Positions 19,034 to 31,996 of a DNA stretch of 32,000 nt are shown one piece after another (position 1 is the stretch's first letter; each line of letters begins with the position of its first letter). The notes under the pieces are model-generated. The model worked only from the letters and a program-made list of their open reading frames with translations. It was not told where the DNA came from and did not search any database. Made by a program: the position numbers and the translations under genes. The stretch comes from an uncultured Methanobrevibacter sp. (GTDB taxonomy: Archaea; Methanobacteriota; Methanobacteria; Methanobacteriales; Methanobacteriaceae), in NCBI RefSeq assembly GCF_947166415.1, contig NZ_CAMVEE010000015.1:1413-33412 (forward strand). The letters run 5' to 3'.

Positions 19034-20812
19034 ATGACTCGTATTTCAATTTTAGACAAAGACCGATGTCAGCCAAAAAAATGTGATTATCTCTGTATTC
19101 ATTACTGTCCAGGTGTTAGAATGGATGAGGACACCATAGTAATTGATGAAGATACTAAAAAACCGCTGATATCTGAAGAATTATGTGAAGGATGCGGTAT
19201 CTGTACCAACAGATGCCCATTTGATGCGGTTACCATTATCAACTTGCCTGAAGCCGCCGGCGATCCGATACACAGATTTGGTCCGAACCAATTTGAACTG
19301 TTTGGACTTCCTACACTTGAAGAGGGAACAGTATTGGGTCTTTTAGGTCAGAACGGTATTGGAAAATCCACAATAATGAATATCCTGGCAGGCAACTTAA
19401 TACCAAACTTTGGAGACTTCGAAAATCCTCCTGAAAACTGGGATAAGGTGATTGAATACTACAAAGGCTCAGCACTTCAAAAGTATTTCCAGGATTTGTC
19501 CGAAGGCAATGTTAAAACCATCTTAAAACCACAGATGGTCGACAAGCTTCCAAAAGTTGTTAAAGGTAAAGTAAGAGACCTGCTCACCAATGTAAATGAA
19601 AGGGACAAGCTTGACTACGTTACAAAAGAATTGCAGCTTGAAAACGTTTTGGACAGAAAAATGGAAAACCTGAGTGGAGGAGAACTTCAAAGGGTTGCGA
19701 TAGCTGCAACAGTGCTTAGGGAAGGTGACTTCTACTACTTCGACGAACCAACATCCTGGCTTGACGTGTCACAAAGGCTTAATGCTGTAAAGGTAATCAG
19801 GTCTCTGGCCGAAGAGGGAAAAAGCGTTTTGGTAATTGAGCACGACCTTGCTACATTGGATGCTCTTTCAGACAACATACATATCCTATACGGTACTCCG
19901 GGCGGATATGGTGTAGTGTCCGGAAGAAAAGGAGTTCGTTTAGGAATCAATGCTTACATCAAAGGATTTTTGGCTGAAGAAAACGTCAGAATCAGAAGAA
20001 ACGCCATTGAATTTACAATAAGGCCGCCTACTCCAGAAGATGAAGGCGAAGCGATTGCAAGCTACACAGACATCCGCAAGGATTATGACGGATTTGAATT
20101 GAGTGCCGACGAAGGTGAAATATTCTATGACGAAATCGTGACCGCATTCGGATCAAACGGTATCGGTAAGACCACATTTGCAAAGATGCTTGCAGGCGTT
20201 GAAGAGCCGACCTCAGGAGAAGTAGATGAGGAAGTTACAATCGCATACAAACCTCAATACATAGTTACAGATTTTGAAGGCAGTGTAAGCGACTTTTTAT
20301 ACATGAACGCACCAAGTTACGGAAGCAAAATCTTTGAAAGTGAAATTATGACTCCTTTCGGATTGAACGACATGCTCGACAAGCCTGTCAAAGGCTTGAG
20401 TGGAGGGGAACTTCAAAGACTAGCTATTGCTTCAACACTTGCAGCGGATGCTGAAATCTATCTTTTTGATGAACCGACCGCATTTTTGGATGTTGAACAG
20501 AGGTTAATAGCTGCAAGAGTAATCAGAAAAATGATTGAAAGTAGAAATGCCGCATCACTTATCGTTGATCACGATATCGTATTTATCGATTACATCTCAG
20601 ATAGGGCAATGGTATTTGACGGTACACCTGGTTTGAACGGTCATGCTTCAAAGCCAACTGACTTGAGAAATGCAATGAACGAATTTTTAGGAAATCTCAA
20701 CATTACATTCAGAAGAGATAAAGAAACAAAAAGGCCTAGAGTTAACAAACTCGACAGTTACAAAGACCGTGAACAAAAAGAAAAAGGAGAATATTATTAC
20801 TTGTCAGATTAA
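19034..20812 (+). CDS. ABCE1 / RNase L inhibitor-type ribosome recycling ATPase
   Basis: N-terminal di-cluster ferredoxin domain ([15 protein letters not shown]...[20 protein letters not shown]). Two ABC cassettes follow (GQNGIGKST / [12 protein letters not shown] / FDEPTSWLD and GSNGIGKTT / [12 protein letters not shown] / FDEPTAFLD). ATG 19034 gives the conserved MTRI start. The track extension from 18959 is not supported. Confidence 0.92.
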
Positions 20813-20904
20813 ATATTCCCTATTTTTTATCTTTTTTTAAAAACTTCCATCCAATATAGATATCAAAAACACGCAATACTTCATTATTAATAGAAAAATA
20901 GTTT

Positions 20905-21211
20905 AAAAAAAAATAGTTATTAAAGTTGAGGAGGAACCTTAATAACTATAGAGAGGCTAAATTATTACAATAGCATGACAAACGACATCTGACTGGCTGA
21001 CTAATGTAATAATTATTCTTAAATACTATGAAGCATGAAAGATCACTCACCATCTTTCAAACATTAGTGATTAGTTCACTAATCTTTGAAAGGCAATGAA
21101 AGATAGAGTGTAAATAGCTATTACTAGCTATTTACGTTAGTTAGTTATATGACCAATTTTAAAATTGAGGTATGGACATATAAATTATCAAACAGGGAAA
21201 TTTGATAATCT
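20905..21211 (-). ncRNA. Candidate structured non-coding RNA, unit A (stand-alone, own promoter)
   Basis: Minus-strand order: promoter module (21205-21265); 5' hairpin TTATCAAA/TTTGATAA (21185-21208); hairpin GTAAATAGCTA/TAGCTATTTAC (21110-21135); long hairpin CTTTCAAA-ATTAGTGA...TCACTAAT-TTTGAAAG (21054-21092); terminal hairpin 20913-20949 with minus-strand loop GGTTCCTCCTCAACT; then T8-9 (plus A-run 20905-20913). The architecture is shared with unit B. The 5' end is inferred. Confidence 0.5.
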
Positions 21212-21265
21212 ATACTATACTACCTAGTAATAACCATATAAATGTTATTAAAGTATTACTATTCA
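21205..21265 (-). promoter_or_regulatory. Duplicate of the Flp-like operon promoter module, facing unit A
   Basis: GATAATCTATACTATACTACCTAGTAATAACCATATAAATGTTATTAAAGTATTACT matches 25005-25060 with about 5 mismatches over about 56 bp. On the minus strand it reads GTAATAC, 10 nt, TTTATATG, GTTATTAC. Confidence 0.6.
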
Positions 21266-21534
21266 TAACAAGCTTTAAATTAGAAATAAAGATGTCAGTT
21301 TCTTTTAAATAAATTAAAAATATGCCCCAACCCAAATTATTCGAAAAGGACAGCCCAACATTCCCCGACGAAAAAAAATAATAAATTAAAAAATCATTAA
21401 AATAATCTTAAATTAAAAAATACTTCCTTAAAATAATTCGCAAATACAAACATGAACTTTAAATAGATATTTCATTAAAAAGATAAAAATAAAGGAGTAA
21501 AATTTGATTTTATCCCCAAACATATTAAAAAATA

Positions 21535-21566
21535 AAATGTAATACTTTTTTAAAAAATAATACTAC
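21535..21566. repeat. 32-bp element GTAATAC-N11-ATAATACTAC (copy 1 of 2)
   Basis: GTAATACTTTTTTAAAAAATAATACTAC (GTAATAC 21539-21545, ATAATAC 21557-21563) is nearly identical to 25342-25369, with the same 11-nt spacing. Confidence 0.55.
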
Positions 21567-21646
21567 ATAGAATAATATTTTTTTATAAAAAAGTAATATA
21601 ATTGTTGAACCATCCAAGAATACAAATTGATTCCAAAAATTAATTT

Positions 21647-21996
21647 AAAAAAAATAGCTATTAAAGACAAGAGGAGCTGATTACTTTAATAGCTATTGTA
21701 GACAGTGAAAGAAACCCATATATGATCATACAAATCTCTTTTTTGATTATTAATTATCTTACATTGATGGAGAAAATAAGCAATATCAATTGGTTATGCC
21801 AACAACCAATATTGCCCGGCTAATGATGAATTATCAACATAAAGATAATTAATTGAAAAATAATCAAAATATTGCTATTCTAACTATTTTTCTAACATTA
21901 GTGATTAACACACTAATCTTAGAAAGACAGTTGAATAATGAGAGTAAATAGCAATAAGCTATTTACAATCATCATATCTGACTATTTTTTAAAACT
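21647..21996 (-). ncRNA. Candidate structured RNA, unit B (3'-UTR position of the Flp-like operon)
   Basis: It begins directly after the mvhD-like stop (21997-21999) with no intervening T-tract. Hairpin GTAAATAGC/GCTATTTAC at 21944-21966. Long hairpin TTTCTAA-ATTAGTG...CACTAAT-TTAGAAA at 21889-21925. Terminal 14-bp perfect hairpin AATAGCTATTAAAG/CTTTAATAGCTATT (21653-21697) with minus-strand loop TAATCAGCTCCTCTTGT, then T8 (plus A-run 21647-21654). Confidence 0.5.
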
Positions 21997-22404
21997 CTAT
22001 TTTAATTCCAATGGCCCAAGTTTTGAGAGAGTTTTATGAAATTCTTCCATAGTTCTCTGAAATTTTTCACCTTCGGATGCTGAAATCCATTCATGACGGA
22101 ATCTCTCTTTTTCAATCCCAAACTCTTCAAGAATATCCTCTACAATTTTTGACCTTCTGGACCATTTGTAGTTACCTGCGTCATAATGGCAGTCACCAAT
22201 ATGGCACCCACCTACAAATACTCCATCGGCACCTTCCTGAAATGCTTTGAAAATCATTGAAGGGTTGATTCTTCCAGAGCACATTACACGAATAATTCTG
22301 ATGTTTGGAGAGTATTGCATACGTGCAGTTCCTGCTGTATCAGCACCACCATAACAACACCAGTTACATAATAAACCTACGATTTTTAAATCATCTGCCA
22401 TCAA
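21997..22404 (-). CDS. MvhD-like iron-sulfur protein (methyl-viologen-reducing hydrogenase delta subunit family)
   Basis: 135 aa. The pattern C.WC.Y.GAD.AG..R.QY....R.IRV.CSGR......AF..GADGV.V.GCH.GDCHY is diagnostic of MvhD/FlpD-type proteins. Confidence 0.85.
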
Positions 22405-22412
22405 ACCACCTC

Positions 22413-23552
22413 TTATAATTCTGTTTTTTCTGGACTGTATAATGGAGGTTTGATATCATCTAAAACTCCAGCTACATAACCAGTTCTATTATAGTATTTT
22501 TTCTGCAATTTATCGAAAATCAATGAAACAGGAATGTCCATCGGACAAACATCATCACATTGGCCACAATCCACACAACTGAAACTCATGTGTGATAGCC
22601 TTACTCCCTGGAACGCTATTGGGAGAGGAGGGATGTTTGCTTCATCCTTGAAGTATGGTTTGTTCAATTCACAGTTTTCGAAGCACCAACAGATCGGACA
22701 AATGTCACGACATGCATAACAGCTAATACATCTGCTCCATTCATCCATTTCACTAACCAGTGGATAAGTGGCATCCTGATTCTTTTTAGCCATTTTGATC
22801 ATGATATTTTCAACTTTTGATCTGCCTTCAACAGCAGGCTCGGAAGGAGACTTGGTTTCAAGAATTCCTGCCTTTTTTGCACCATCTATTAATTCTTGGC
22901 CTTTTTCATCATTGATTTCTATGAATGTCCAGCCGTCCTCTGCTCCCCAGTTTCCACAGGCGATGTTTGCCTTTCTTGGGATTTTCACATCACATCTCTG
23001 GCAGTTTTTACGGCGTCCGTAACCTTCATTTTCAAGGTCATGGATTTTGACTGCCTCTTCGGAACCGTCTGCAAGTTCAATGATAAACTGTCCCTTATCG
23101 ATTTCTTCACTTATGACATCATCAGGATTGGCTTCATAGAACAGGTCAATCATCTCTCTTCCGCTAACAGGAGATACTGTTCCACCACAATTTAAACCAA
23201 TCATGTAAATATTATCCTTATTAATTTTGTGTCTAACTATAAGCTCTTCAACAGCCCTCATATCACATGGTTTGACTGTAAATGCAACTTTTTTATCAAA
23301 GAAATATTTTTGAACAAGATCACCAATCATTGTTGGAGCACAATGATAAGATCCTGCAGTTTTTAATAAATCCTGTGAATCAGTGATGAAAACAGGAAAA
23401 GCATCATAAACATCATCTTGAGGACTTAATGCCAAAACACCATCAACCAATCCTTCATCCAGCAAATATTTGAGAATGCTGGTTACGGCCCCTCCGCATT
23501 CACCAGCTTCATGAATTTCATTATTTTGAGATTTTGCTAAAACATAACTCAT
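22413..23552 (-). CDS. FdhB/FrhB-family F420-reactive flavo-iron-sulfur subunit with C-terminal 2x[4Fe-4S] ferredoxin motifs
   Basis: N-terminal [21 protein letters not shown] and AGS.Y are FrhB/FdhB-like. The C-terminal motifs are [16 protein letters not shown] and [16 protein letters not shown]. Confidence 0.8.
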
Positions 23553-23561
23553 ATTATCCCT

Positions 23562-24575
23562 CTATTTGTTTAATTCCCCGATAACTTCAATAATACCTAA
23601 ATTATCAGACCCAATTACGCAATTGAAATTTTGTACTTCTCCCATTGCATTTACAAAAGACCCGTCTTGTTCCAACCATGTTTTAACTGGAACAACAATG
23701 TTTGAGATTTTTGTAGTATCATTTTCACAGCAGGCAAAAGTGATAATTTTAGATATTTTAGTAAAATCATAATCGAATTCATCTACAACATCGTCATTGA
23801 AAACCAGCAGCAATTTAGTATTATCAAACAACTCCACCATTTCATCTGCGGATTTTGAATCAATGATATCTAAAGCACCTTTTGTATTAGGTTTACTGAA
23901 AACAGGTAGGGCTTTACAATTTAAAGATTCTATTTTATCCAAATCACCCGCTTCATCCACATAATTAAATACAACGACTGAAGAATCATCAATCTCTCCT
24001 TTGAATTTATCTAAAAATTCTTGAACTGAAGAGTTGGAAATTTCATCGGCAATATTGAAAGTAACTGCATTTTCATTTTTGCTTAAGGCATATATCTTGG
24101 CATCATTCTGTTTCGCATGAACAATTCTTCTTCCAATTAACGGATTTTCATACAACAAATCACCAATTACAAATACTTTGCTTGCATTTGCAATCTCATC
24201 ATATGAGGCCACATCCTCAAAATTCTTCAAATCATTTGCATAAAATCCAATATTAAAACCGTTAGATTCTGCGAAATCCTTAATTGCAGCAATATCTTCA
24301 ACACTACAATTACCAGAACAAATTACAGATACGTCTGATGCATTAGCTGATTTAATTTCATTTGAAGCGTCTGCAATTGAATTAGTCAAATCAACATTTT
24401 CGAATTTATTTTTAAAACAATCAATGGAATTTCTTCCATTCAAACAGTTTTTACCAGCGTTAACTGGATGCCTTTTATAGGGAAAAGTCCCAACAATTTC
24501 TTCACCATCTAAAATCACATTTATACCACAACCAACACTGCATGAAGGGCATAACGTGTGTTTAATTTCAAACAT
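23562..24575 (-). CDS. Truncated FdhA-like molybdopterin-oxidoreductase-family protein (N-terminal [4Fe-4S] domain retained, catalytic motif not seen)
   Basis: CPSCSVGCGINV...PVNAGKNCLNGR is the N-terminal Fe-S motif of formate dehydrogenase alpha / Mo-bisPGD enzymes. At 337 aa it is about half the usual length. No Cys-His (or TGA-encoded Sec-His) dipeptide is present anywhere in the translation. Confidence 0.65.
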   Translation of the reverse strand: MFEIKHTLCPSCSVGCGINVILDGEEIVGTFPYKRHPVNAGKNCLNGRNSIDCFKNKFENVDLTNSIADASNEIKSANASDVSVICSGNCSVEDIAAIKDFAESNGFNIGFYANDLKNFEDVASYDEIANASKVFVIGDLLYENPLIGRRIVHAKQNDAKIYALSKNENAVTFNIADEISNSSVQEFLDKFKGEIDDSSVVVFNYVDEAGDLDKIESLNCKALPVFSKPNTKGALDIIDSKSADEMVELFDNTKLLLVFNDDVVDEFDYDFTKISKIITFACCENDTTKISNIVVPVKTWLEQDGSFVNAMGEVQNFNCVIGSDNLGIIEVIGELNK

Positions 24576-24592
24576 AATACATCACCAAATCT

Positions 24593-24943
24593 TTAAAAAG
24601 CAGCATTCAAATTTATTGTAGAACTAATATCCTCTTTAAATAGCTCATAACTTGACTGTCTAGTCAATGAAATCATATTCATCAACATAGTGCATGCATG
24701 ATGGAAAACGATTTGAGAACATTCTTGTTGGATGAATTCTTCAAAAATGTCTAATCTGATCAATCCTTCAACCTTAAAATTTAAATTCAAATTTGAGGAG
24801 GATTTTAAAACAATAATATAGTTTATATCCCTTTGGTCAGTATTTGTATATTCGACAGCCCAATCAACATCCAAATTTAAATTAGTATTTTTGGGATTGT
24901 AATCTTCTCTAATCATGGCCATTCTTTCTACAGTAATTTCCAT
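24593..24943 (-). CDS. Hypothetical 116-aa protein, first gene of the Flp-like operon
   Basis: ATG 24943 (MEITVERMAM...) is preceded by GGAGAG 6 nt upstream. The track start at 24985 is a TTG with no RBS. No motif was recognised. Confidence 0.5.
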   Translation of the reverse strand: MEITVERMAMIREDYNPKNTNLNLDVDWAVEYTNTDQRDINYIIVLKSSSNLNLNFKVEGLIRLDIFEEFIQQECSQIVFHHACTMLMNMISLTRQSSYELFKEDISSTINLNAAF

Positions 24944-25004
24944 ACTACTCTCTCCAATTATTAAAATAATCTCCAAATTATTCAAATTAAAAGAATTAAT
25001 TAAA

Positions 25005-25402: not shown

Positions 25403-26899
25403 CTAAACTATTGTTAATGCATCAGGCACTTTCTTCAAAATACTGTCCCTAACTGGAATCATTGTTGAAGAAGCAATTGAAAAGTCAGCACTATCTGCTG
25501 CAGCCTTATCATCCTTTTCAGCAATGATAGTTGCATTTAATTCATTTTGCAAGTTATCAACAGTATTTTTCAATACCCAATCGTCGATGTCTGAAATTAC
25601 AATTTCATCAACGAAACTATCCAATTCATTAGCGATTACCCATGAAATAAACCTTCCACCATGTAGCGCTATTGTATTTCCCTCGGCCAATTCAACAATA
25701 TCCTTTAATGTATGCTTTAACTCAATGTTTTGATACATTCTGGAATTAACCAACGTTGCCCAATGGGCATCACCAACATGATACTCACCGATTTTTCTTG
25801 GATATACATAGTCAGGCCCTGCAATCTTAACGGCAGTTGTTAATGACAATAAGTCAGGTCTTTGGACCGGAAGGCCCCTATTTGGGAATTCCTCGTTAAT
25901 AATCTGAATAATTCTTGGAAGTCCGAATTTTCCTCTCTTGGCAGTTCCAGGCTCAAATCCACACATATATCCATGATGATTTTTTTGAAAACCTGTAATT
26001 ACCATATTCAAACCGGATCTCAGGCCCACCCTTACTTCATGTTCATAAGCTCCATTTGTCGCAACCACCTTTCCTGGAGACAATATTCTTGCAGCAGCAA
26101 TTGTCTTTGCAAATGCCTCTGAAGTGTTTTCACATCTATTGAACGGACCTCCTTCAACAACAATAACATCTGCACCAATTTCAATGGATTTTTCAAATCC
26201 AGTGATTACTTCATCATAACCGTCACCAACAAACATGATTGATTCCAAGCCCCTTCCATACTTTTTAGCCAGATTTGCAATATCTTCAGCTTCCCTTAAT
26301 GGAGCCGCATGACCATCCCCTGTCTGTTCACAGGTGACATTTACCGCAACGGAGGAAGACAATTTAACCCATTCCTCTTTATCATCTTTTTCGGCGAGTT
26401 CCTTATCAATCAATCTTTCATGAATTCTTCCACGAGGACATTCAGTAAATGCAGGACCCTTATTATAACATTCGCCGCCACACCCACTGATGTTTTTAGG
26501 AAGTCTCATCGCACCATTTTCACCGAAGTGATCCAAATCCAGAGGCACATCAACAATTTCATGTACCTTCCTCATCACTTCAACACCTCTCATTCCGAAT
26601 TTTTCGGCTATGTCTGAAAAAGCGTATGCACAAATATGAATTGGAGCACCAAACATATCGGCCAATCGGCAATTACCCAACAAATCCATTAACTCCAAAT
26701 CTGATGCACAAGTTCCAACGACTACCTCTGTTAAATCGCAGCCTAACGGAAATCTTTTAAATTGCATTCCCAATTTCATTGTTTCTTCAAATGACAATTC
26801 TGAAATTGCATCAACTACGGATGTTACATCCTTATTCATTTTTGATATTTCAATTGCAGCTTCATCATCATAAACAGCTTTTTTAATCAAATCATACAT
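25403..26899 (-). CDS. 498-aa protein divergent from hmd, probably the FeGP-cofactor biosynthesis protein HcgG (fibrillarin-like C-terminal domain)
   Basis: It lies divergently adjacent to hmd and near hcgABC. A Cys cluster CGGECYNKGPAFTEC is present, along with a central barrel-like region (VGDGYDE...VVEGGPF). The C-terminal Rossmann-like segment (IALHGGRFISWVIANELDSFVDEIVISDID) fits the reported fibrillarin-like domain of HcgG. The assignment rests on context and impression, not on alignment. Confidence 0.45.
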   Translation of the reverse strand: MYDLIKKAVYDDEAAIEISKMNKDVTSVVDAISELSFEETMKLGMQFKRFPLGCDLTEVVVGTCASDLELMDLLGNCRLADMFGAPIHICAYAFSDIAEKFGMRGVEVMRKVHEIVDVPLDLDHFGENGAMRLPKNISGCGGECYNKGPAFTECPRGRIHERLIDKELAEKDDKEEWVKLSSSVAVNVTCEQTGDGHAAPLREAEDIANLAKKYGRGLESIMFVGDGYDEVITGFEKSIEIGADVIVVEGGPFNRCENTSEAFAKTIAAARILSPGKVVATNGAYEHEVRVGLRSGLNMVITGFQKNHHGYMCGFEPGTAKRGKFGLPRIIQIINEEFPNRGLPVQRPDLLSLTTAVKIAGPDYVYPRKIGEYHVGDAHWATLVNSRMYQNIELKHTLKDIVELAEGNTIALHGGRFISWVIANELDSFVDEIVISDIDDWVLKNTVDNLQNELNATIIAEKDDKAAADSADFSIASSTMIPVRDSILKKVPDALTIV

Positions 26900-26972: not shown

Positions 26973-27097
26973 GTATTACTGAAAATTAATTAAATCAATT
27001 GTATTACAAAATAAAAAGTAATACTAAACTATAATATTCCAAACAAATAGTATTATCAGTATTACTAAAAATAATAAAATAATAGAAAAAATAATAC
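26973..27097. promoter_or_regulatory. Dense GTAWTAC heptamer cluster in the divergent hcgG-hmd control region
   Basis: GTATTAC at 26973-26979, 27001-27007 and 27059-27065. GTAATAC at 27018-27024. Near copies: GTATTAT 27050-27056, ATAATAC 27091-27097, GTAATAA 27182-27188. GTATTAC-N10-GTAATAC forms an inverted pair at 27001-27024. Confidence 0.6.
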
Positions 27098-27228
27098 TAA
27101 ATAAAGACCAATGTAAAGATTTAAATAGTACTACTTTTTAAATATAAATTATTACTGCATAGAATAAAAAACCATAATTAAGTAATAAAAAAGCAATATG
27201 ACACATTTAGACCATGCAGTAAAACTTT

Positions 27229-27285
27229 TTTATATAGTTTAAACTATTGGAAAAGTTCTGTTAAAGATATATTTTTTAAGGAGAC
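27229..27285 (+). promoter_or_regulatory. hmd copy 1 box A promoter and Shine-Dalgarno
   Basis: AAAACTTTTTTATATAG contains TTTATATA at 27229-27236. AAGGAGA at 27279-27285 lies 6 nt before ATG 27292. Confidence 0.6.
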
Positions 27286-27291
27286 GAAAAA

Positions 27292-28305
27292 ATGAAAGTA
27301 GCAATTTTAGGTGCAGGATGTTACAGAACACATGCTGCAAGTGGAATTACCAACTTCTCAAGAGCTGTAGAAGTTGCTGAAGCAACCGGTAAAGAAAACA
27401 TTTCCATGACCCACTCCACAATCGAAATGGGTGCAGAATTATTAGAATTAGCAGGTGTAGACGAAGTAGTAGTATCCGACCCAGTATTCGACGGAGACTT
27501 CACCGTAGTAGAAGACTTCGACTACGCAGACGTAATCGCAGCTCACAAAGCAGGAACCCCCGAAGAAGTAATGCCAGCAATCAGAGCAAAAGTCACCGAA
27601 TTAGCAGAAACCGTACCAAAACCAGCTAAAGGCGCCATTCACTTTACTCACCCTGAAGACTTAGGAATGAAATGTATCAACGATGACGCAGAAGCAGTAG
27701 CAGACGCTGACTGGGTAATGACCTGGTTACCAAAAGGCGGAATGCAAAAAGAAATCATCGAAAAATTCGCACCTAACCTAAAAGAGGGCGCTATCCTAAC
27801 CCACGCATGTACCATTCCAACCACCAAATTCAACGACATTTTCGAAGAATTAGGCGCAAAAGTAAACGTGGCTTCATATCACCCAGGTGCAGTACCTGAA
27901 ATGAAAGGACAAGTATACATTGCAGAAGGATACGCTGACCAAGCAGCTATCGATACCTTACTCGACTTAGGTAACAAAGCAAGAGGAGCAGCATACACAT
28001 TACCAGCAAACTTATTAGGACCAGTATGTGACATGTGTTCCGCAGTAACCGCAATTACCTACGCAGGTATCTTAGCATACAGAGACACAGTAACTCAAAT
28101 CTTAGGTGCTCCGGACGACTTCGCACAAATGATGGCAAACGAAGCATTGACCCAAGTAACCGCATTAATGAACGACGAAGGTATTGCAAACATGGATGAA
28201 GCATTAGCACCATCCGCATTAACCGGTACCGCTGACTCAATGAACTTCGGATCATTAGCAGAAATCGTTCCTACCGTATTAGATTACTTAGGCAAAGAAG
28301 AATAA
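27292..28305 (+). CDS. hmd: H2-forming methylenetetrahydromethanopterin dehydrogenase ([Fe]-hydrogenase) Hmd, copy 1
   Basis: MKVAILGAGCYRTHAASGITNFSRA is the hallmark Hmd N-terminus. 337 aa. THACTIP contains the Fe-ligating Cys region. Codon usage is strongly biased. hcg genes are adjacent. Confidence 0.93.
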   Translation: MKVAILGAGCYRTHAASGITNFSRAVEVAEATGKENISMTHSTIEMGAELLELAGVDEVVVSDPVFDGDFTVVEDFDYADVIAAHKAGTPEEVMPAIRAKVTELAETVPKPAKGAIHFTHPEDLGMKCINDDAEAVADADWVMTWLPKGGMQKEIIEKFAPNLKEGAILTHACTIPTTKFNDIFEELGAKVNVASYHPGAVPEMKGQVYIAEGYADQAAIDTLLDLGNKARGAAYTLPANLLGPVCDMCSAVTAITYAGILAYRDTVTQILGAPDDFAQMMANEALTQVTALMNDEGIANMDEALAPSALTGTADSMNFGSLAEIVPTVLDYLGKEE

Positions 28306-28319
28306 ACACAATAAGTTTT

Positions 28320-28360
28320 AATTGTTGATTTTTATCAACAATTAATTTAACTTATTTTTT
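28320..28360 (+). terminator. Hairpin plus T6 after hmd copy 1
   Basis: AATTGTTGAT (28320-28329) tttt ATCAACAATT (28334-28343), then TTTTTT at 28355-28360. Confidence 0.5.
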
Positions 28361-28436
28361 AAGTGTTTAAAAAAAAGAACCCTTAAAAAATAAGTTAATT
28401 TTTATACTTATGAAAAATTGGAGATTGGTGTTAAAA

Positions 28437-29582
28437 TTGTTAGAAAAACTTAAAAAAATATTCGGCGTTAAAGATGCAGTAGAAACTGTTGAAGCAAAAA
28501 CTGTCGATGAAAAAATTGAAGAAGAAATCATAGCCGTAGAAGAAACCGTTGAAAAAACAAAGAAAATGAAAGTGGCAATTTTAGGTGCAGGATGTTACAG
28601 AACACATGCTGCAAGTGGAATTACCAACTTCTCAAGAGCTGTAGAAGTTGCTGAAGCAACCGGTAAAGAAAACATTTCCATGACCCACTCCACAATCGAA
28701 ATGGGTGCAGAATTATTAGAATTAGCAGGTGTAGACGAAGTAGTAGTATCCGACCCAGTATTCGACGGAGACTTCACCGTAGTAGAAGACTTCGACTACG
28801 CAGACGTAATCGCAGCTCACAAAGCAGGAACCCCCGAAGAAGTAATGCCAGCAATCAGAGCAAAAGTCACCGAATTAGCAGAAACCGTACCAAAACCAGC
28901 TAAAGGCGCCATTCACTTTACTCACCCTGAAGACTTAGGAATGAAATGTATCAACGATGACGCAGAAGCAGTAGCAGACGCTGACTGGGTAATGACCTGG
29001 TTACCAAAAGGCGGAATGCAAAAAGAAATCATCGAAAAATTCGCACCTAACCTAAAAGAGGGCGCTATCCTAACCCACGCATGTACCATTCCAACCACCA
29101 AATTCAACGACATTTTCGAAGAATTAGGCGCAAAAGTAAACGTGGCTTCATATCACCCAGGTGCAGTACCTGAAATGAAAGGACAAGTATACATTGCAGA
29201 AGGATACGCTGACCAAGCAGCTATCGATACCTTACTCGACTTAGGTAACAAAGCAAGAGGAGCAGCATACACATTACCAGCAAACTTATTAGGACCAGTA
29301 TGTGACATGTGTTCCGCAGTAACCGCAATTACCTACGCAGGTATCTTAGCATACAGAGACACAGTAACTCAAATCTTAGGTGCTCCGGACGACTTCGCAC
29401 AAATGATGGCAAACGAAGCATTGACCCAAGTAACCGCATTAATGAACGACGAAGGTATTGCAAACATGGATGAAGCATTAGCACCATCCGCATTAACCGG
29501 TACCGCTGACTCAATGAACTTCGGATCATTAGCAGAAATCGTTCCTACCGTATTAGATTACTTAGGTAAAGAAGAAGAATAA
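28437..29582 (+). CDS. hmd: Hmd copy 2, with an N-terminal E/K/V-rich extension
   Basis: From ATG 28566 the sequence is the same protein as copy 1 plus one extra C-terminal Glu. The frame stays open upstream to ATG 28410. There is no SD before ATG 28566. TTG 28437 is preceded by GGTG (28427-28430) in the same ttGGTGttaaa(a)TTG context as the hcgA start at 29702. Alternative starts are 28410 and 28566. Confidence 0.85.
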   Translation: MLEKLKKIFGVKDAVETVEAKTVDEKIEEEIIAVEETVEKTKKMKVAILGAGCYRTHAASGITNFSRAVEVAEATGKENISMTHSTIEMGAELLELAGVDEVVVSDPVFDGDFTVVEDFDYADVIAAHKAGTPEEVMPAIRAKVTELAETVPKPAKGAIHFTHPEDLGMKCINDDAEAVADADWVMTWLPKGGMQKEIIEKFAPNLKEGAILTHACTIPTTKFNDIFEELGAKVNVASYHPGAVPEMKGQVYIAEGYADQAAIDTLLDLGNKARGAAYTLPANLLGPVCDMCSAVTAITYAGILAYRDTVTQILGAPDDFAQMMANEALTQVTALMNDEGIANMDEALAPSALTGTADSMNFGSLAEIVPTVLDYLGKEEE

Positions 29583-29589
29583 GTTAAAA

Positions 29590-29627
29590 TGTTGGATTTA
29601 ATCCAACAATTATTTAACTTATTTTTT
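29590..29627 (+). terminator. Hairpin plus T6 after hmd copy 2
   Basis: TGTTGGAT (29590-29597) tta ATCCAACA (29601-29608), then TTTTTT at 29622-29627. It is homologous to 28320-28360 but differs by paired stem changes. Confidence 0.5.
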
Positions 29628-29701
29628 AATTGTTATCTGAAAATAGCCATTAAAAAATAAGTTAGGATATTTAATTTAATAGAGTTTAAGTTGGTGTTAA
29701 A

Positions 29702-30700
29702 TTGATTGATGAAATTTTAAACAAAGCAAAACAGGGACAGAAATTAAGCGATGAAGAATTTTTAGAGTTGTTGAGGATAGATGATGATAAAAATTTGGAA
29801 AAATTATTCGAAACATCTGCCGAAATACGTAATAGTCAATCAAAGACAATAAAATTAACATCAACAGTGCATATTACAAACAAATGCCAAATTCAGCCAA
29901 GATGCAAATATTGCGGATTTGCTGAAGAAACCTCATCAAAAGGATACTACAATGCATTCTATAAATCTGATGATGAAATATTAAAAGCTGCATTGTCCAT
30001 AACCGAAGCACATATTCCTCGCGTGAGCTGTTCCGGAGGATATGGGTATAAAGGAAAGCAGGCCGTGAATGCATGCAGAATCGTTAAAGAAAACACCAAC
30101 CTGGAGATACTTGTTAATGTTGGTGGAGATTTAACTTCAAAATCAATTGAAAAGCTTGCAGAACTTGGAGTGGATACAGTCTGCTGCAATCTGGAAACAA
30201 TAAACGAAGAGGTTTTCAAAAAAACAAAACCTGGAGATTCCCTTTCACAAAGAATTGAAACCTGCAAATTAGTATGTGAAGCAGGAATTGGATTATCCTC
30301 AGGACTGCTTTTAGGCCTTGGTGAAAGTCCTGAAGACAGAATCAGACATTTGCGTTTCCTGGGCAAGTTCAAGACACTTGAAGAAATCCCAATAATGGGT
30401 TTTAATCCTTATGATGATACCCCAATGGCTGATTACCCCCCATTCCCTTTGAAAGAACAATTGAAAATTGTCGCTGTTACCCGAATAATGTATCCTGACA
30501 TTAGAATTACAATGCCGACACCGACTGTTGGGCCTGAAAATGTCGAATATTCCCTCAAAGCGGGGGCAAATAATCTGGCAACAGTTATTGCAGACAATTA
30601 CCCTCTTGAAGTTAAAGGAGTTGGAGCTCCGGAGTATGGGAACTATTCTGAAGTCGTTAATGTGATTGAAAAATTAGGCCTCATACCTCAAACTATTTAA
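29702..30700 (+). CDS. hcgA: Radical SAM enzyme HcgA (FeGP cofactor biosynthesis)
   Basis: The cluster motif CQIQPRCKYC has the unusual CX5CX2C spacing reported for HcgA rather than CX3CX2C. The fold is BioB/ThiH-like in length (332 aa). It lies directly downstream of hmd. TTG start with a GGTG SD. Confidence 0.8.
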   Translation: MIDEILNKAKQGQKLSDEEFLELLRIDDDKNLEKLFETSAEIRNSQSKTIKLTSTVHITNKCQIQPRCKYCGFAEETSSKGYYNAFYKSDDEILKAALSITEAHIPRVSCSGGYGYKGKQAVNACRIVKENTNLEILVNVGGDLTSKSIEKLAELGVDTVCCNLETINEEVFKKTKPGDSLSQRIETCKLVCEAGIGLSSGLLLGLGESPEDRIRHLRFLGKFKTLEEIPIMGFNPYDDTPMADYPPFPLKEQLKIVAVTRIMYPDIRITMPTPTVGPENVEYSLKAGANNLATVIADNYPLEVKGVGAPEYGNYSEVVNVIEKLGLIPQTI

Positions 30701-30724: not shown

Positions 30725-31207
30725 ATGGCATTTGAAGAAATGATAAGAAATGCATTTGAAGAATCTAGAAACAACACCAGATTCGGGGATACCCTTGAAG
30801 AGCTGAATGAACTTCAGGAATATATCAAAAATGCTGAAAAGATATACGTTCCCAACAAAAACGGGATTAAAGTAGAAGTGCTGAACAGCGTTTTAAATGA
30901 GTATGGCCTGCCAGAAGCTAAAATACTTCAAATCAATACAAACACAGCGGATACAAGCAGGATTCCTGCTCTTGCAAAAGCGTATATGGCACTTGACCAA
31001 AGCGATGCTGATTTAATAATAGCTAGGGGAAGGTTAGGAATTCCGGGTTCAGGATCCTTGCTTATCTTTATTGACAACAAGGGAAGAATATTGACTGCTG
31101 GAACTTCCCCGTCACATCTGATTCATAAAAAAACAATCGAGGAAGCGGTTTATAAGGAAGCATGCGAAGCGCTTGAAAAGATTGGTTTTGAAAAAAAAGA
31201 AGGTTGA
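30725..31207 (+). CDS. hcgB: HcgB-like protein (pyridinol guanylyltransferase of FeGP cofactor biosynthesis)
   Basis: 160 aa, positioned between hcgA and the hcgC-like gene. Size and order match the conserved hcgA-B-C arrangement. No independent motif check was possible. Confidence 0.6.
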   Translation: MAFEEMIRNAFEESRNNTRFGDTLEELNELQEYIKNAEKIYVPNKNGIKVEVLNSVLNEYGLPEAKILQINTNTADTSRIPALAKAYMALDQSDADLIIARGRLGIPGSGSLLIFIDNKGRILTAGTSPSHLIHKKTIEEAVYKEACEALEKIGFEKKEG

Positions 31208-31996
31208 ATGATGAATATTGATACTGGAATAACCTCAGAAGTCCTTACGATTAAATCTGAAACAAAATTAATTGATATTTTCAATAAGATTATTTCAAAG
31301 AAATCGGAGACCGTTTATGATTATGTTGAAAGCCTGAATATCGACAAATCAAGTAAGATAATTGTAATTGGAACTTATTTTACCGGTGTGGGAATTGTAA
31401 AAAAATTAAGTGAAAAATACGACAACATACTATTGGCTGACATCTATCCTCATCTGGAAGACTTATTGTATACTGAAATAGGGGGAAAACTCCAACATAA
31501 AGTTAAATTTACATCAAACCTCGATTTAATCTATTCTGGAAGTATTGTGATTGACACAACAGGTTTTGGTGGAATTAGCGTGGATGAAACATCAAGACTT
31601 GATGTTGACGGATTCATAATAGAAGACCCTGTCGCTGAAGACAATGACAGGCTTCTTGAAGAAAAAAACAACATTCACGAAAGGCTGAATGCAGTGAAAT
31701 GTCCAAACAAGGCAATCTTGAAAACAAAAGGAATAGACAGCAAAACCTCCGGTACAATGACCCTGACGATTGGTGTTTTAACCAATCTATTGAATAAATG
31801 CCAAAAAGAGGAAGGAGTACTTTATTGTGCATGCGAAATGGGCTTTCTTGAAGAGGTAATATTTAAGGAGAAAAACATTGGAAAATTCATTGATTTGATA
31901 AATGTTCCCTCATTAAAGATATCAACAATCAAGCCCTTTGATTTAGAGGAATTGATTCTTGAAGAAATAGATAAAATAAATTCAAAAATGATTTAA
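31208..31996 (+). CDS. hcgC: HcgC-like Rossmann-fold SAM-dependent methyltransferase (FeGP cofactor biosynthesis)
   Basis: 262 aa. The Rossmann-like KIIVIGTYFTGVGIVKKL....NILLADIYPHL fits HcgC. It abuts the hcgB stop (TGA ATG ATG). Size and order fit HcgC. Confidence 0.6.
   Translation: MMNIDTGITSEVLTIKSETKLIDIFNKIISKKSETVYDYVESLNIDKSSKIIVIGTYFTGVGIVKKLSEKYDNILLADIYPHLEDLLYTEIGGKLQHKVKFTSNLDLIYSGSIVIDTTGFGGISVDETSRLDVDGFIIEDPVAEDNDRLLEEKNNIHERLNAVKCPNKAILKTKGIDSKTSGTMTLTIGVLTNLLNKCQKEEGVLYCACEMGFLEEVIFKEKNIGKFIDLINVPSLKISTIKPFDLEELILEEIDKINSKMI

Follow-up and report, generated by a model that had tools for sequence, protein, structure and literature searches.

The window analysed here is a stretch of 32,000 nucleotides (nt) from an uncultured Methanobrevibacter sp. 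(contig NZ_CAMVEE010000015.1), in which two genes for the [Fe]-hydrogenase Hmd, the H2-forming methylene-H4MPT dehydrogenase, stand side by side among hcg genes. The organism is of the rumen type, and the pair heads its cluster of hcg genes for FeGP cofactor synthesis. The order across the locus is hcgG (minus strand), hmd, hmd, hcgA, hcgB, hcgC, so that the hmd pair shows the association with hcg genes both upstream, on the opposite strand, and downstream; at a related locus, L078, hcgD-F come next in the hcg cluster. Both copies scored 563 bits in an NCBIfam profile search with TIGR01723, the Hmd equivalog model (cut-off 341), and only 82 bits with TIGR01724, the model for HmdII and HmdIII (cut-off 167). 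Pfam families PF22616 and PF03201 matched Hmd with E values of 6e-115 and 4e-36. By these scores both copies are bona fide Hmd and not HmdII or HmdIII, and [Fe]-hydrogenase activity is predicted for them. Copy 2 differs from copy 1 in carrying an N-terminal extension, referred to below as the leader; the part that it shares with copy 1 is called the core. The core (query residues 44-379) aligned end to end with the solved [Fe]-hydrogenases 4JJF, 6YK9, 2B0J and 6HAC (E 3e-153 to 2e-127), with 65-70% identity to the crystallised enzymes over its full length. The features of the locus are listed in Table 1.

Table 1. Genes and sequence elements of the hmd locus (window coordinates).
Feature	Position	Strand	Basis or remark
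hcgG (hmdC), FeGP-cofactor biosynthesis, divergent from hmd	25403..26899	-	PF10113 E 7.5e-243; TIGR03958 721 bits
Inverted repeat TTACTGCAT...ATGCAGTAA, directly 5′ of candidate TATA box	27146..27228	+	repeat search; recurs in relatives
Candidate hmd TATA box TTTATATA	27229-27236	+	read from sequence; role inferred
Shine-Dalgarno GGAGAC of copy 1	27280..27285	+	conserved as GGAGAC(A)6ATG in relatives
hmd copy 1, canonical [Fe]-hydrogenase, 337 amino acids	27292..28305	+	TIGR01723 563 bits; Pfam HMD_N + HMD
Flank A (linker between copies)	28306..28436	+	alignments; orthologous to flank A of 9 other genomes, 74-98%
Flank A hairpin AATTGTTGAT-TTTT-ATCAACAATT	28320-28343	+	read from sequence, folding
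Flank A T-tract (T6)	28355-28360	+	sequence
Flank A palindrome arm TTAAAAAATAAGTTAA	28383-28398	+	alignments
Flank A-specific motif TTTTATACTTAT	28400-28411	+	alignments
TTTTATAC, flank A, candidate promoter element for copy 2	28400-28407	+	sequence
Flank A Shine-Dalgarno GGTG	28427-28430	+	alignments
Copy 2 leader, 43 codons from TTG, (M)LEKLKKIFGVKDAVETVEAKTVDEKIEEEIIAVEETVEKTKK	28437..28565	+	frame open in 11 of 11 linker-bearing loci
hmd copy 2 core, 338 amino acids; 381 with leader from 28437	28566..29582	+	open reading frame translation, Pfam, NCBIfam
Flank B	29583..29701	+	alignments
Flank B hairpin TGTTGGAT-TTA-ATCCAACA	29590-29608	+	read from sequence, folding
Flank B 22-nt palindrome arms	29615-29636 and 29643-29664	+	alignments
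Flank B T-tract	29622-29627	+	sequence
Flank B Shine-Dalgarno GGTG (hcgA)	29693-29696	+	alignments
hcgA (hmdB), radical-SAM enzyme, TTG start	29702..30700	+	TIGR03957 497 bits
hcgB	30725..31207	+	Pfam PF11576 and PF06690 (hcgB-hcgC stretch)
hcgC, complete 262-amino-acid frame per open reading frame tool, 4 nt short of window end	31208..31996	+	Pfam PF11576 and PF06690 (hcgB-hcgC stretch)

Compared without gaps over 1011 nt, the cores (27292-28302 with 28566-29576) differ at two sites: position 9, where GTA stands against GTG, and position 1002, where GGC stands against GGT. Both changes are synonymous, and an extra GAA codon precedes the stop codon of copy 2, just as an earlier reading of this DNA, the preliminary description, had it. 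The uninterrupted identical stretch measures 992 nt, and a repeat of such length and identity is far beyond chance. The start of copy 1 lies 1274 nt from the start of the copy 2 core. On the 5′ side the similarity between the copies ends 3 nt before the ATG, with none further upstream. When coding and flanking identity were compared over the 1274-nt units, the cores were 99.8% and the 3′ flanks 72-77% identical. The flanks are thus homologous yet much more diverged than the coding sequences, as had been proposed, and the two parts of the unit are not equally similar. C ends 80% of the NNY codons of hmd, versus 19-52% in the other genes of the window, a bias that fits very high expression.

The flank that follows copy 1 (flank A) and the flank that follows copy 2 (flank B) are 77% identical over 81 ungapped nt (28317-28397 versus 29584-29664) and 72% identical over about 131 aligned columns reaching to the start codons. 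Both contain a hairpin, a T6 tract, the sequence TTAAAAAATAAGTTA and the block TTGGTGTTAAA(A)TTG. The two hairpins differ by one G:C pair that is present in one and absent from the other on both arms, which bears out the earlier observation of paired changes in the terminator stems. A stem-loop was found directly 5′ of the T-tract in 59 of 59 folded flanks; the core stem TTGTTG/CAACAA was kept, and compensating stem variants occurred among them (GAT/ATC, GGT/ACC, GGA/TCC, GTGTTG.../...CAACAC and ATG.../...CAT). The paired changes between the window hairpins therefore preserve the structure. For this count each flank was folded separately, because the hairpin columns of the MAFFT alignment were structurally inconsistent (a paired indel).

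A 22-nt palindrome, TTAACTTATTTTTTAAT...ATTAAAAAATAAGTTAA, was almost invariant in 60 flanks and is without an Rfam match. In the window (28346-28398 and 29615-29664) it connects the oligo-T tract behind hmd with TTAAAAAATAAGTTAA, which precedes hcgA or the leader. Its first arm may serve hmd as an oligo-T terminator, and its second may belong to the promoter of hcgA. Similarly, TTAAAAAATAAGTTA (28383-28398) is a candidate hcgA-type promoter element that would now also stand upstream of copy 2, for which TTTTATAC is the other candidate.

The same tandem or its linker was present in 11 other Methanobrevibacter contigs from various samples and assemblers. Both hmd copies are complete in L028, L030, L078 (a 374-kb scaffold) and L081; copy 1 is partial in L024, L079, L087, L088, L089 and L090, and L080 contains the linker and copy 2 only. 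The genomes nearest to that of the window are uncultured rumen or gut Methanobrevibacter, with amino acid identities of at most 94% for species representatives and 97-98% for ENA metagenome contigs. Flanks A and B from ten genomes were aligned. Flank A was 74-98% identical between genomes, and any flank A was only 66-79% identical to any flank B; both window flanks match their counterparts in L087 at 98%. Within a genome, flanks A and B were 70-78% identical in all ten cases. Flanks A and B therefore form separate orthologous groups, and the duplication predates the divergence of these genomes; the low A-B likeness within every genome likewise indicates that it is old. The age ascribed to the duplication in the preliminary description was thus supported by the orthology of the flanks across genomes, together with the recurrence of the tandem.

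The cores, by comparison, are 91.6-99.8% identical within genomes, versus about 85% between the two clades. Copies 1 and 2 differ at 2 core positions in the window, 13 in L030, 19 in L078, 33 in L081 and 85 in L028, and these differences are concentrated at the ends. Synonymous divergence (dS) was 0.004 between the window copies and 0.18-0.46 between the window and other tandem-bearing genomes; in the comparison of paralogues with orthologues it was 0.004-0.29 within genomes and 0.27-0.46 between them. Non-synonymous divergence (dN) was low in all comparisons. The longest identical runs extended over 959 nt in L030, 886 nt in L078 and 619 nt in L081 (permutation P ≤ 5e-6 each). In L028 the cores form a mosaic, with blocks of 97-99% identity alternating with blocks of 76-90%. 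The relatives keep a copy-2-specific signature in the last 100-190 nt, encoding NDQGIEQ...SLGEIV in L087-L090 and SELVPTM in the L028 group. Paralogues are therefore closer to each other than orthologues are, the duplication is older than the split of the genomes, and the homogenised sequence falls into discrete tracts whose breakpoints vary by lineage, which are the marks of concerted evolution. The proposal that gene conversion keeps the coding parts identical accordingly gained support from the clustering of cores by genome, from the dS contrast and from the identical runs.

Positions at which copies 1 and 2 of the nearest relatives differ served as diagnostic sites. Both window copies showed the copy-1 state at 14 of 16 such sites defined by L087, 14 of 15 defined by L088 and 7 of 7 defined by L090. 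The 3′ regions of both window copies were 99% identical to copy 1 of L087 and 92-93% identical to its copy 2. These results indicate that, since the window and L087 lineages parted, the sequence of copy 1 has recently replaced that of copy 2 as far as nt 1001 or beyond. Only in the window genome is homogenisation complete; the relatives retain the copy-2-specific 3′ end. Copy 2 of the window carries the copy-1-like state at nt 822-1001, adjoining the unique flank B. As the diagnostic sites at 968-984 are only 30-45 nt from flank B, so that single reads must link the two, conversion of the 3′ end is not an assembly artefact. The latest event thus had copy 1 as donor and copy 2 as recipient; its tract would have begun at position -3, reached nt 1001 or beyond and erased the C-terminal signature of copy 2.

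The leader of copy 2 consists of (M)LEKLKKIFG and a K/E-rich linker, fused in frame to the Hmd core. Across the 11 linker-bearing loci its length varies from 36 to 49 codons, and every indel preserves the frame. Its start lies at one fixed position, 9 nt past a conserved TGGTG, and is ATG, GTG or, in the window, TTG (28437). The first ten residues (M-L-E/D-K/R-L-K-K/N-I/L-F-G/S) are kept through synonymous or conservative changes, the synonymous ones falling in Leu, Ile, Gly and Lys codons (for example Leu TTA/CTT and Ile ATA/ATT). In L028, L030, L078, L079 and L080, codon 1 of the copy 2 core is TTT or TTC, so that copy 2 of these five loci is translatable only with the leader. The leader is probably translated in vivo, and the isoform that bears it may have a separate function. 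Peptides predicted from the leader include DAVETVEAK and TVDEKIEEEIIAVEETVEK, and a core made without the leader would have the N-terminus MKVAILGAGCYR. The block TTGGTGTTAAA(A)NTG, which comprises the Shine-Dalgarno sequence and the start codon, can be aligned with its hcgA counterpart in flank B, indicating that the duplicated unit included the hcgA initiation region; only this block is securely homologous to hcgA. A 390-amino-acid open reading frame from ATG 28410 was rejected as an over-extended gene model, because this ATG is not conserved; L087, the nearest relative, has a stop in the same frame.

None of the four solved Hmd structures matches the leader: their chains align from their own residue 1 (residue 5 in 6YK9) to the core Met, query residue 44 (45 for 6YK9). 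In the AlphaFold model the core is confident, the leader has a predicted local distance difference test (pLDDT) score below 50 at residues 1-21, and a helix at residues 23-41 reaches 55-65. The leader was also considered as a membrane-targeting amphipathic helix. This idea is speculation and was set aside: the hydrophobic moment of 0.49 was reached by 18% of shuffled sequences, and residues 1-21 are those with pLDDT below 50.

An assembly artefact had been named as the trivial alternative to a real pair of near-identical genes. Neither the tandem arrangement nor the 3′ end can be explained in this way; further inside the repeat, the identity could still be inflated. A perfect repeat of 992 nt exceeds short reads and typical inserts and cannot be phased by short reads, so that the interior identity may be overstated. 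An assembler that had collapsed the interior and threaded one consensus through two really differing copies would leave differences such as those found, positions 9 and 1002 and the GAA codon all being within 10 nt of unique sequence. L030 and L078 likewise differ at their ends only, and many contigs of metagenome-assembled genomes (MAGs) break in or at hmd, showing that assemblers struggle there. We nevertheless consider such a collapse unlikely: the tandem and linker were assembled independently in the 11 other contigs, interior differences were resolved elsewhere (the 85 in L028, and 13 at nt 75-228 in L081), and the copy-1-like end of copy 2 abuts unique flank B, which makes the 3′ conversion real regardless. 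As a separate observation, MAG contigs start at hmd in L016, L019, L021, L027 and L046 and end inside it in L065-L068, L071 and L073-L077, several k141 contigs stopping about 150 nt in. Breaks of this kind would follow if those genomes, too, had hmd as a near-identical repeat.

The remaining alternatives accept the two copies and explain their identity otherwise. A simple, very recent duplication in the window genome, without conversion and with flanks that merely look diverged, would give near-identical cores. It is contradicted by the difference between flanks (72-77%) and cores (99.8%), by the linker, leader and flank-A characters common to 9 other genomes whose cores stand at a dS of 0.18-0.46 from the window, and by the distinct copy-2 3′ end of the nearest relatives, and we regard it as extremely improbable. 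Equally improbable is the view that purifying selection and extreme codon bias alone keep the copies of a highly expressed, dosage-sensitive enzyme identical. The codon bias of hmd is indeed strong and dN is low throughout, but genomes that share the duplication differ by a dS about 100 times the value within the window, and selection alone yields neither sharp-edged identical blocks nor copy-1 states at copy-2 diagnostic sites. Where the preliminary description had offered conversion or dosage selection, conversion is thus favoured by dS and by the tracts, and dosage alone is insufficient, copy 2 being a distinct isoform with a leader. Replacement of the cassette by recombination with the DNA of another strain, instead of exchange between resident copies, would have a parallel in L088 and L090, where a window-like cassette is paired with a diverged hcgA in a way that suggests inter-lineage recombination at the locus. 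The resident copies would become identical by this route only if the donor were already homogenised, and the window flanks match those of L087 closely; we judge import to be very unlikely.

Several observations weigh against an old duplication homogenised by conversion. The evidence consists of assembled sequence alone, from a source contig of 43.8 kb (43,836 bp), and the surviving differences lie no more than 10 nt from the repeat ends, as a collapsed repeat resolved by coverage would also give. In the hcgA tree, tandem, short-leader and single-copy states are interspersed, which complicates a purely vertical history. In L088 and L090 the hmd cassette (end of copy 1, flank A, leader and copy 2) is window-like, at 96% and 90% amino acid identity, but flank B and hcgA are those of the other clade, the hcgA products being 80-81% identical to that of the window. 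Either recombination between lineages at the copy 2 3′ end produced this arrangement, or the metagenome contigs are chimeric. Derivation of the leader coding sequence from the first hcgA codons was tried and rejected, since 9-12 of 21 nt past the start codon are alike, which falls in the top 3-19% of the null distribution and is not significant; structural confidence for the leader is low to medium in AlphaFold. Copy number has probably changed repeatedly, and some inter-lineage exchange or contig chimerism is likely. L091 (1866-2991), the closest relative by hcgA (94% amino acid identity), carries only one hmd, whose upstream region is of the copy-1 type but whose 3′ end and flank B are of the copy-2 type. 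Either the assembly has collapsed there or unequal crossing-over has caused a real deletion.

With these points taken into account, we put a probability of about 0.8 on an old tandem duplication of hmd, with cores of 1 kb each homogenised by gene conversion and with a leader-bearing copy 2. The ancestral duplicated unit would have begun near the hmd start codon, taken in the 3′ flank of hmd and included at least the start codon of hcgA with its ribosome-binding site. The cores would then act as direct repeats 260 bp apart, one being repeatedly overwritten with the other by non-reciprocal homologous recombination, within one chromosome or between chromosome copies; we infer this recombination mechanism from the sequence patterns. 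The non-homologous leader and the diverged flanks would bound the conversion tracts, with tract ends that vary by lineage. Copy 1 would be the canonical gene, driven by a promoter of its own and preceded by a strong Shine-Dalgarno sequence, and copy 2 would be read from the TTG at 28437 behind a duplicated Shine-Dalgarno sequence of the hcgA type.

It is possible, although we hold the idea only tentatively and lean against it, that copy 2 is a distinct, undescribed [Fe]-hydrogenase isoform with a conserved N-terminal module from a captured hcgA-type initiation region, and not a spare dose of the enzyme. The module would open with a short helix rich in K, L and F (M-L-E-K-L-K-K-I-F-G) and continue with a charged spacer rich in K and E, and it could confer a separate localisation, partner or regulation. 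Conversion would prevent the catalytic core of the isoform from drifting away from the main enzyme, the leader lying outside the tract.

Leaders were found in three arrangements in rumen Methanobrevibacter: in the tandem, in dispersed copies, and as a short leader in a single gene, between two pairs of Shine-Dalgarno sequence and ATG. This short in-frame leader, MVLSKLKE(K/R)F...KGDKK (about 20 codons), precedes hmd in many single-copy relatives (L004-L013, L017, L022, L023, L026, L029, L032, L050, L051, L058, L066, L070 and L082-L086; for example L082:3985-4063). It sits between the pairs GGAGAC-ATG and GGAGGC-ATG and is similar to the ten N-terminal residues of the leader in the tandem; a single-copy gene with two such start sites might give long and short isoforms. 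Dispersed hmd genes without hcg neighbours (L025:4170-5282, L109:2983-4098, L099, L107, L108 and L110) have an upstream region of the hmd type, and leaders of the dispersed copies read MLLDKLKELFG..., MVLEKLRAVFS... and MVFEKLKAIFA...SVDEKIEEKIEEK. The first core codon of L107 is ATT, so the leader is required there. A degenerate DNA pattern for the leader start gave zero matches in JGI metagenome contigs, and a follow-up protein scan for the leader returned dispersed leader-hmd copies only, with no new tandems.

Upstream of copy 1, the inverted repeat listed in Table 1 recurs as TTACT[G/A]CATGG ... CCATG[C/T]AGTAA upstream of hmd in 31 related loci, with arms 36-51 nt apart. Its central base covaries (G..C in 17 loci, A..T in 14), and the repeat might act in the regulation of hmd expression, as a site or as a structure. 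The intergenic region between hcgG and hmd (window 26990-27110) contains several copies of the motif (A)GTAATACTAAA / AGTATTACT, and similar ones are found in L078 and L082. At 22413-24985 lie an FrhB/FdhB-like gene (379 amino acids), a short molybdopterin-oxidoreductase-like open reading frame (337 amino acids), whose matches are limited to the Fe4S4 domain and a C-terminal fragment, and a frame of 130 amino acids with no family match; the trio also adjoins hcgG in L078 and L082. G+C content falls to 23% at 21001-22000, a stretch without a tRNA, Rfam or tandem-repeat match, and 20812-21997 is without an open reading frame of at least 110 amino acids. An Rfam scan gave zero matches in the flanks or the rest of the window, and scans of the window for tRNA genes and short-period tandem repeats found none.

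Duplicated bacterial genes in concerted evolution by gene conversion are known from tufA and tufB of Salmonella and E. coli. As at hmd, two very highly expressed copies are near-identical through non-reciprocal recombination and their surroundings diverge; unlike the hmd copies, which are archaeal, form a direct tandem 260 bp apart and include one leader untouched by conversion, the tuf genes are dispersed and inverted and encode identical proteins. Among archaea, Archibald and Roger reportedly described gene conversion between chaperonin (thermosome) paralogues in 2002. Gene conversion is also an established means by which multigene families are kept homogeneous and the genome copies of polyploid archaea equal (PMC8223754). 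In these cases, too, homologous recombination homogenises paralogous or allelic archaeal sequence, by the machinery assumed here for hmd, but the evidence there is phylogenetic conflict in partial tracts, or conversion shown between chromosome copies. Additional hmd-family genes of hydrogenotrophic methanogens include HmdII and HmdIII, a separate and distant clade of hmd paralogues, M. smithii being without an hmd paralogue (PMC2739858); both window copies are, in contrast, true Hmd by score. The genome paper on Methanobrevibacter millerae SM9 mentions 'additional copies of hmd' in one sentence (PMC4987999). That strain belongs to the same clade (the M. gottschalkii group) and has more than one true hmd, but the paper describes no arrangement, leader or homogenisation. 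Our literature search turned up no report of hmd in tandem, of conversion at this gene or of an extended Hmd N-terminus. Both the process, concerted evolution by gene conversion, and the enzyme are known; what is new is the occurrence of the process at hmd and the conserved leader-bearing isoform.

The locus provides a clean archaeal case of concerted evolution, supported by comparison across genomes, whose sequence tells how old the duplication is, where the tracts end and which way the last event ran. Hmd is among the most abundant enzymes of hydrogenotrophic methanogens, and the M. gottschalkii-type clade is the dominant methane producer of ruminants. At hmd, short-read MAGs from this clade show systematic breaks or collapses, and its copy number and isoform content are therefore under-reported. 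The locus also suggests an N-terminally extended Hmd isoform that is widespread in rumen metagenomes and is represented in none of the solved structures. If the leader is translated and functional, it would pose a testable question on the localisation or regulation of [Fe]-hydrogenase.

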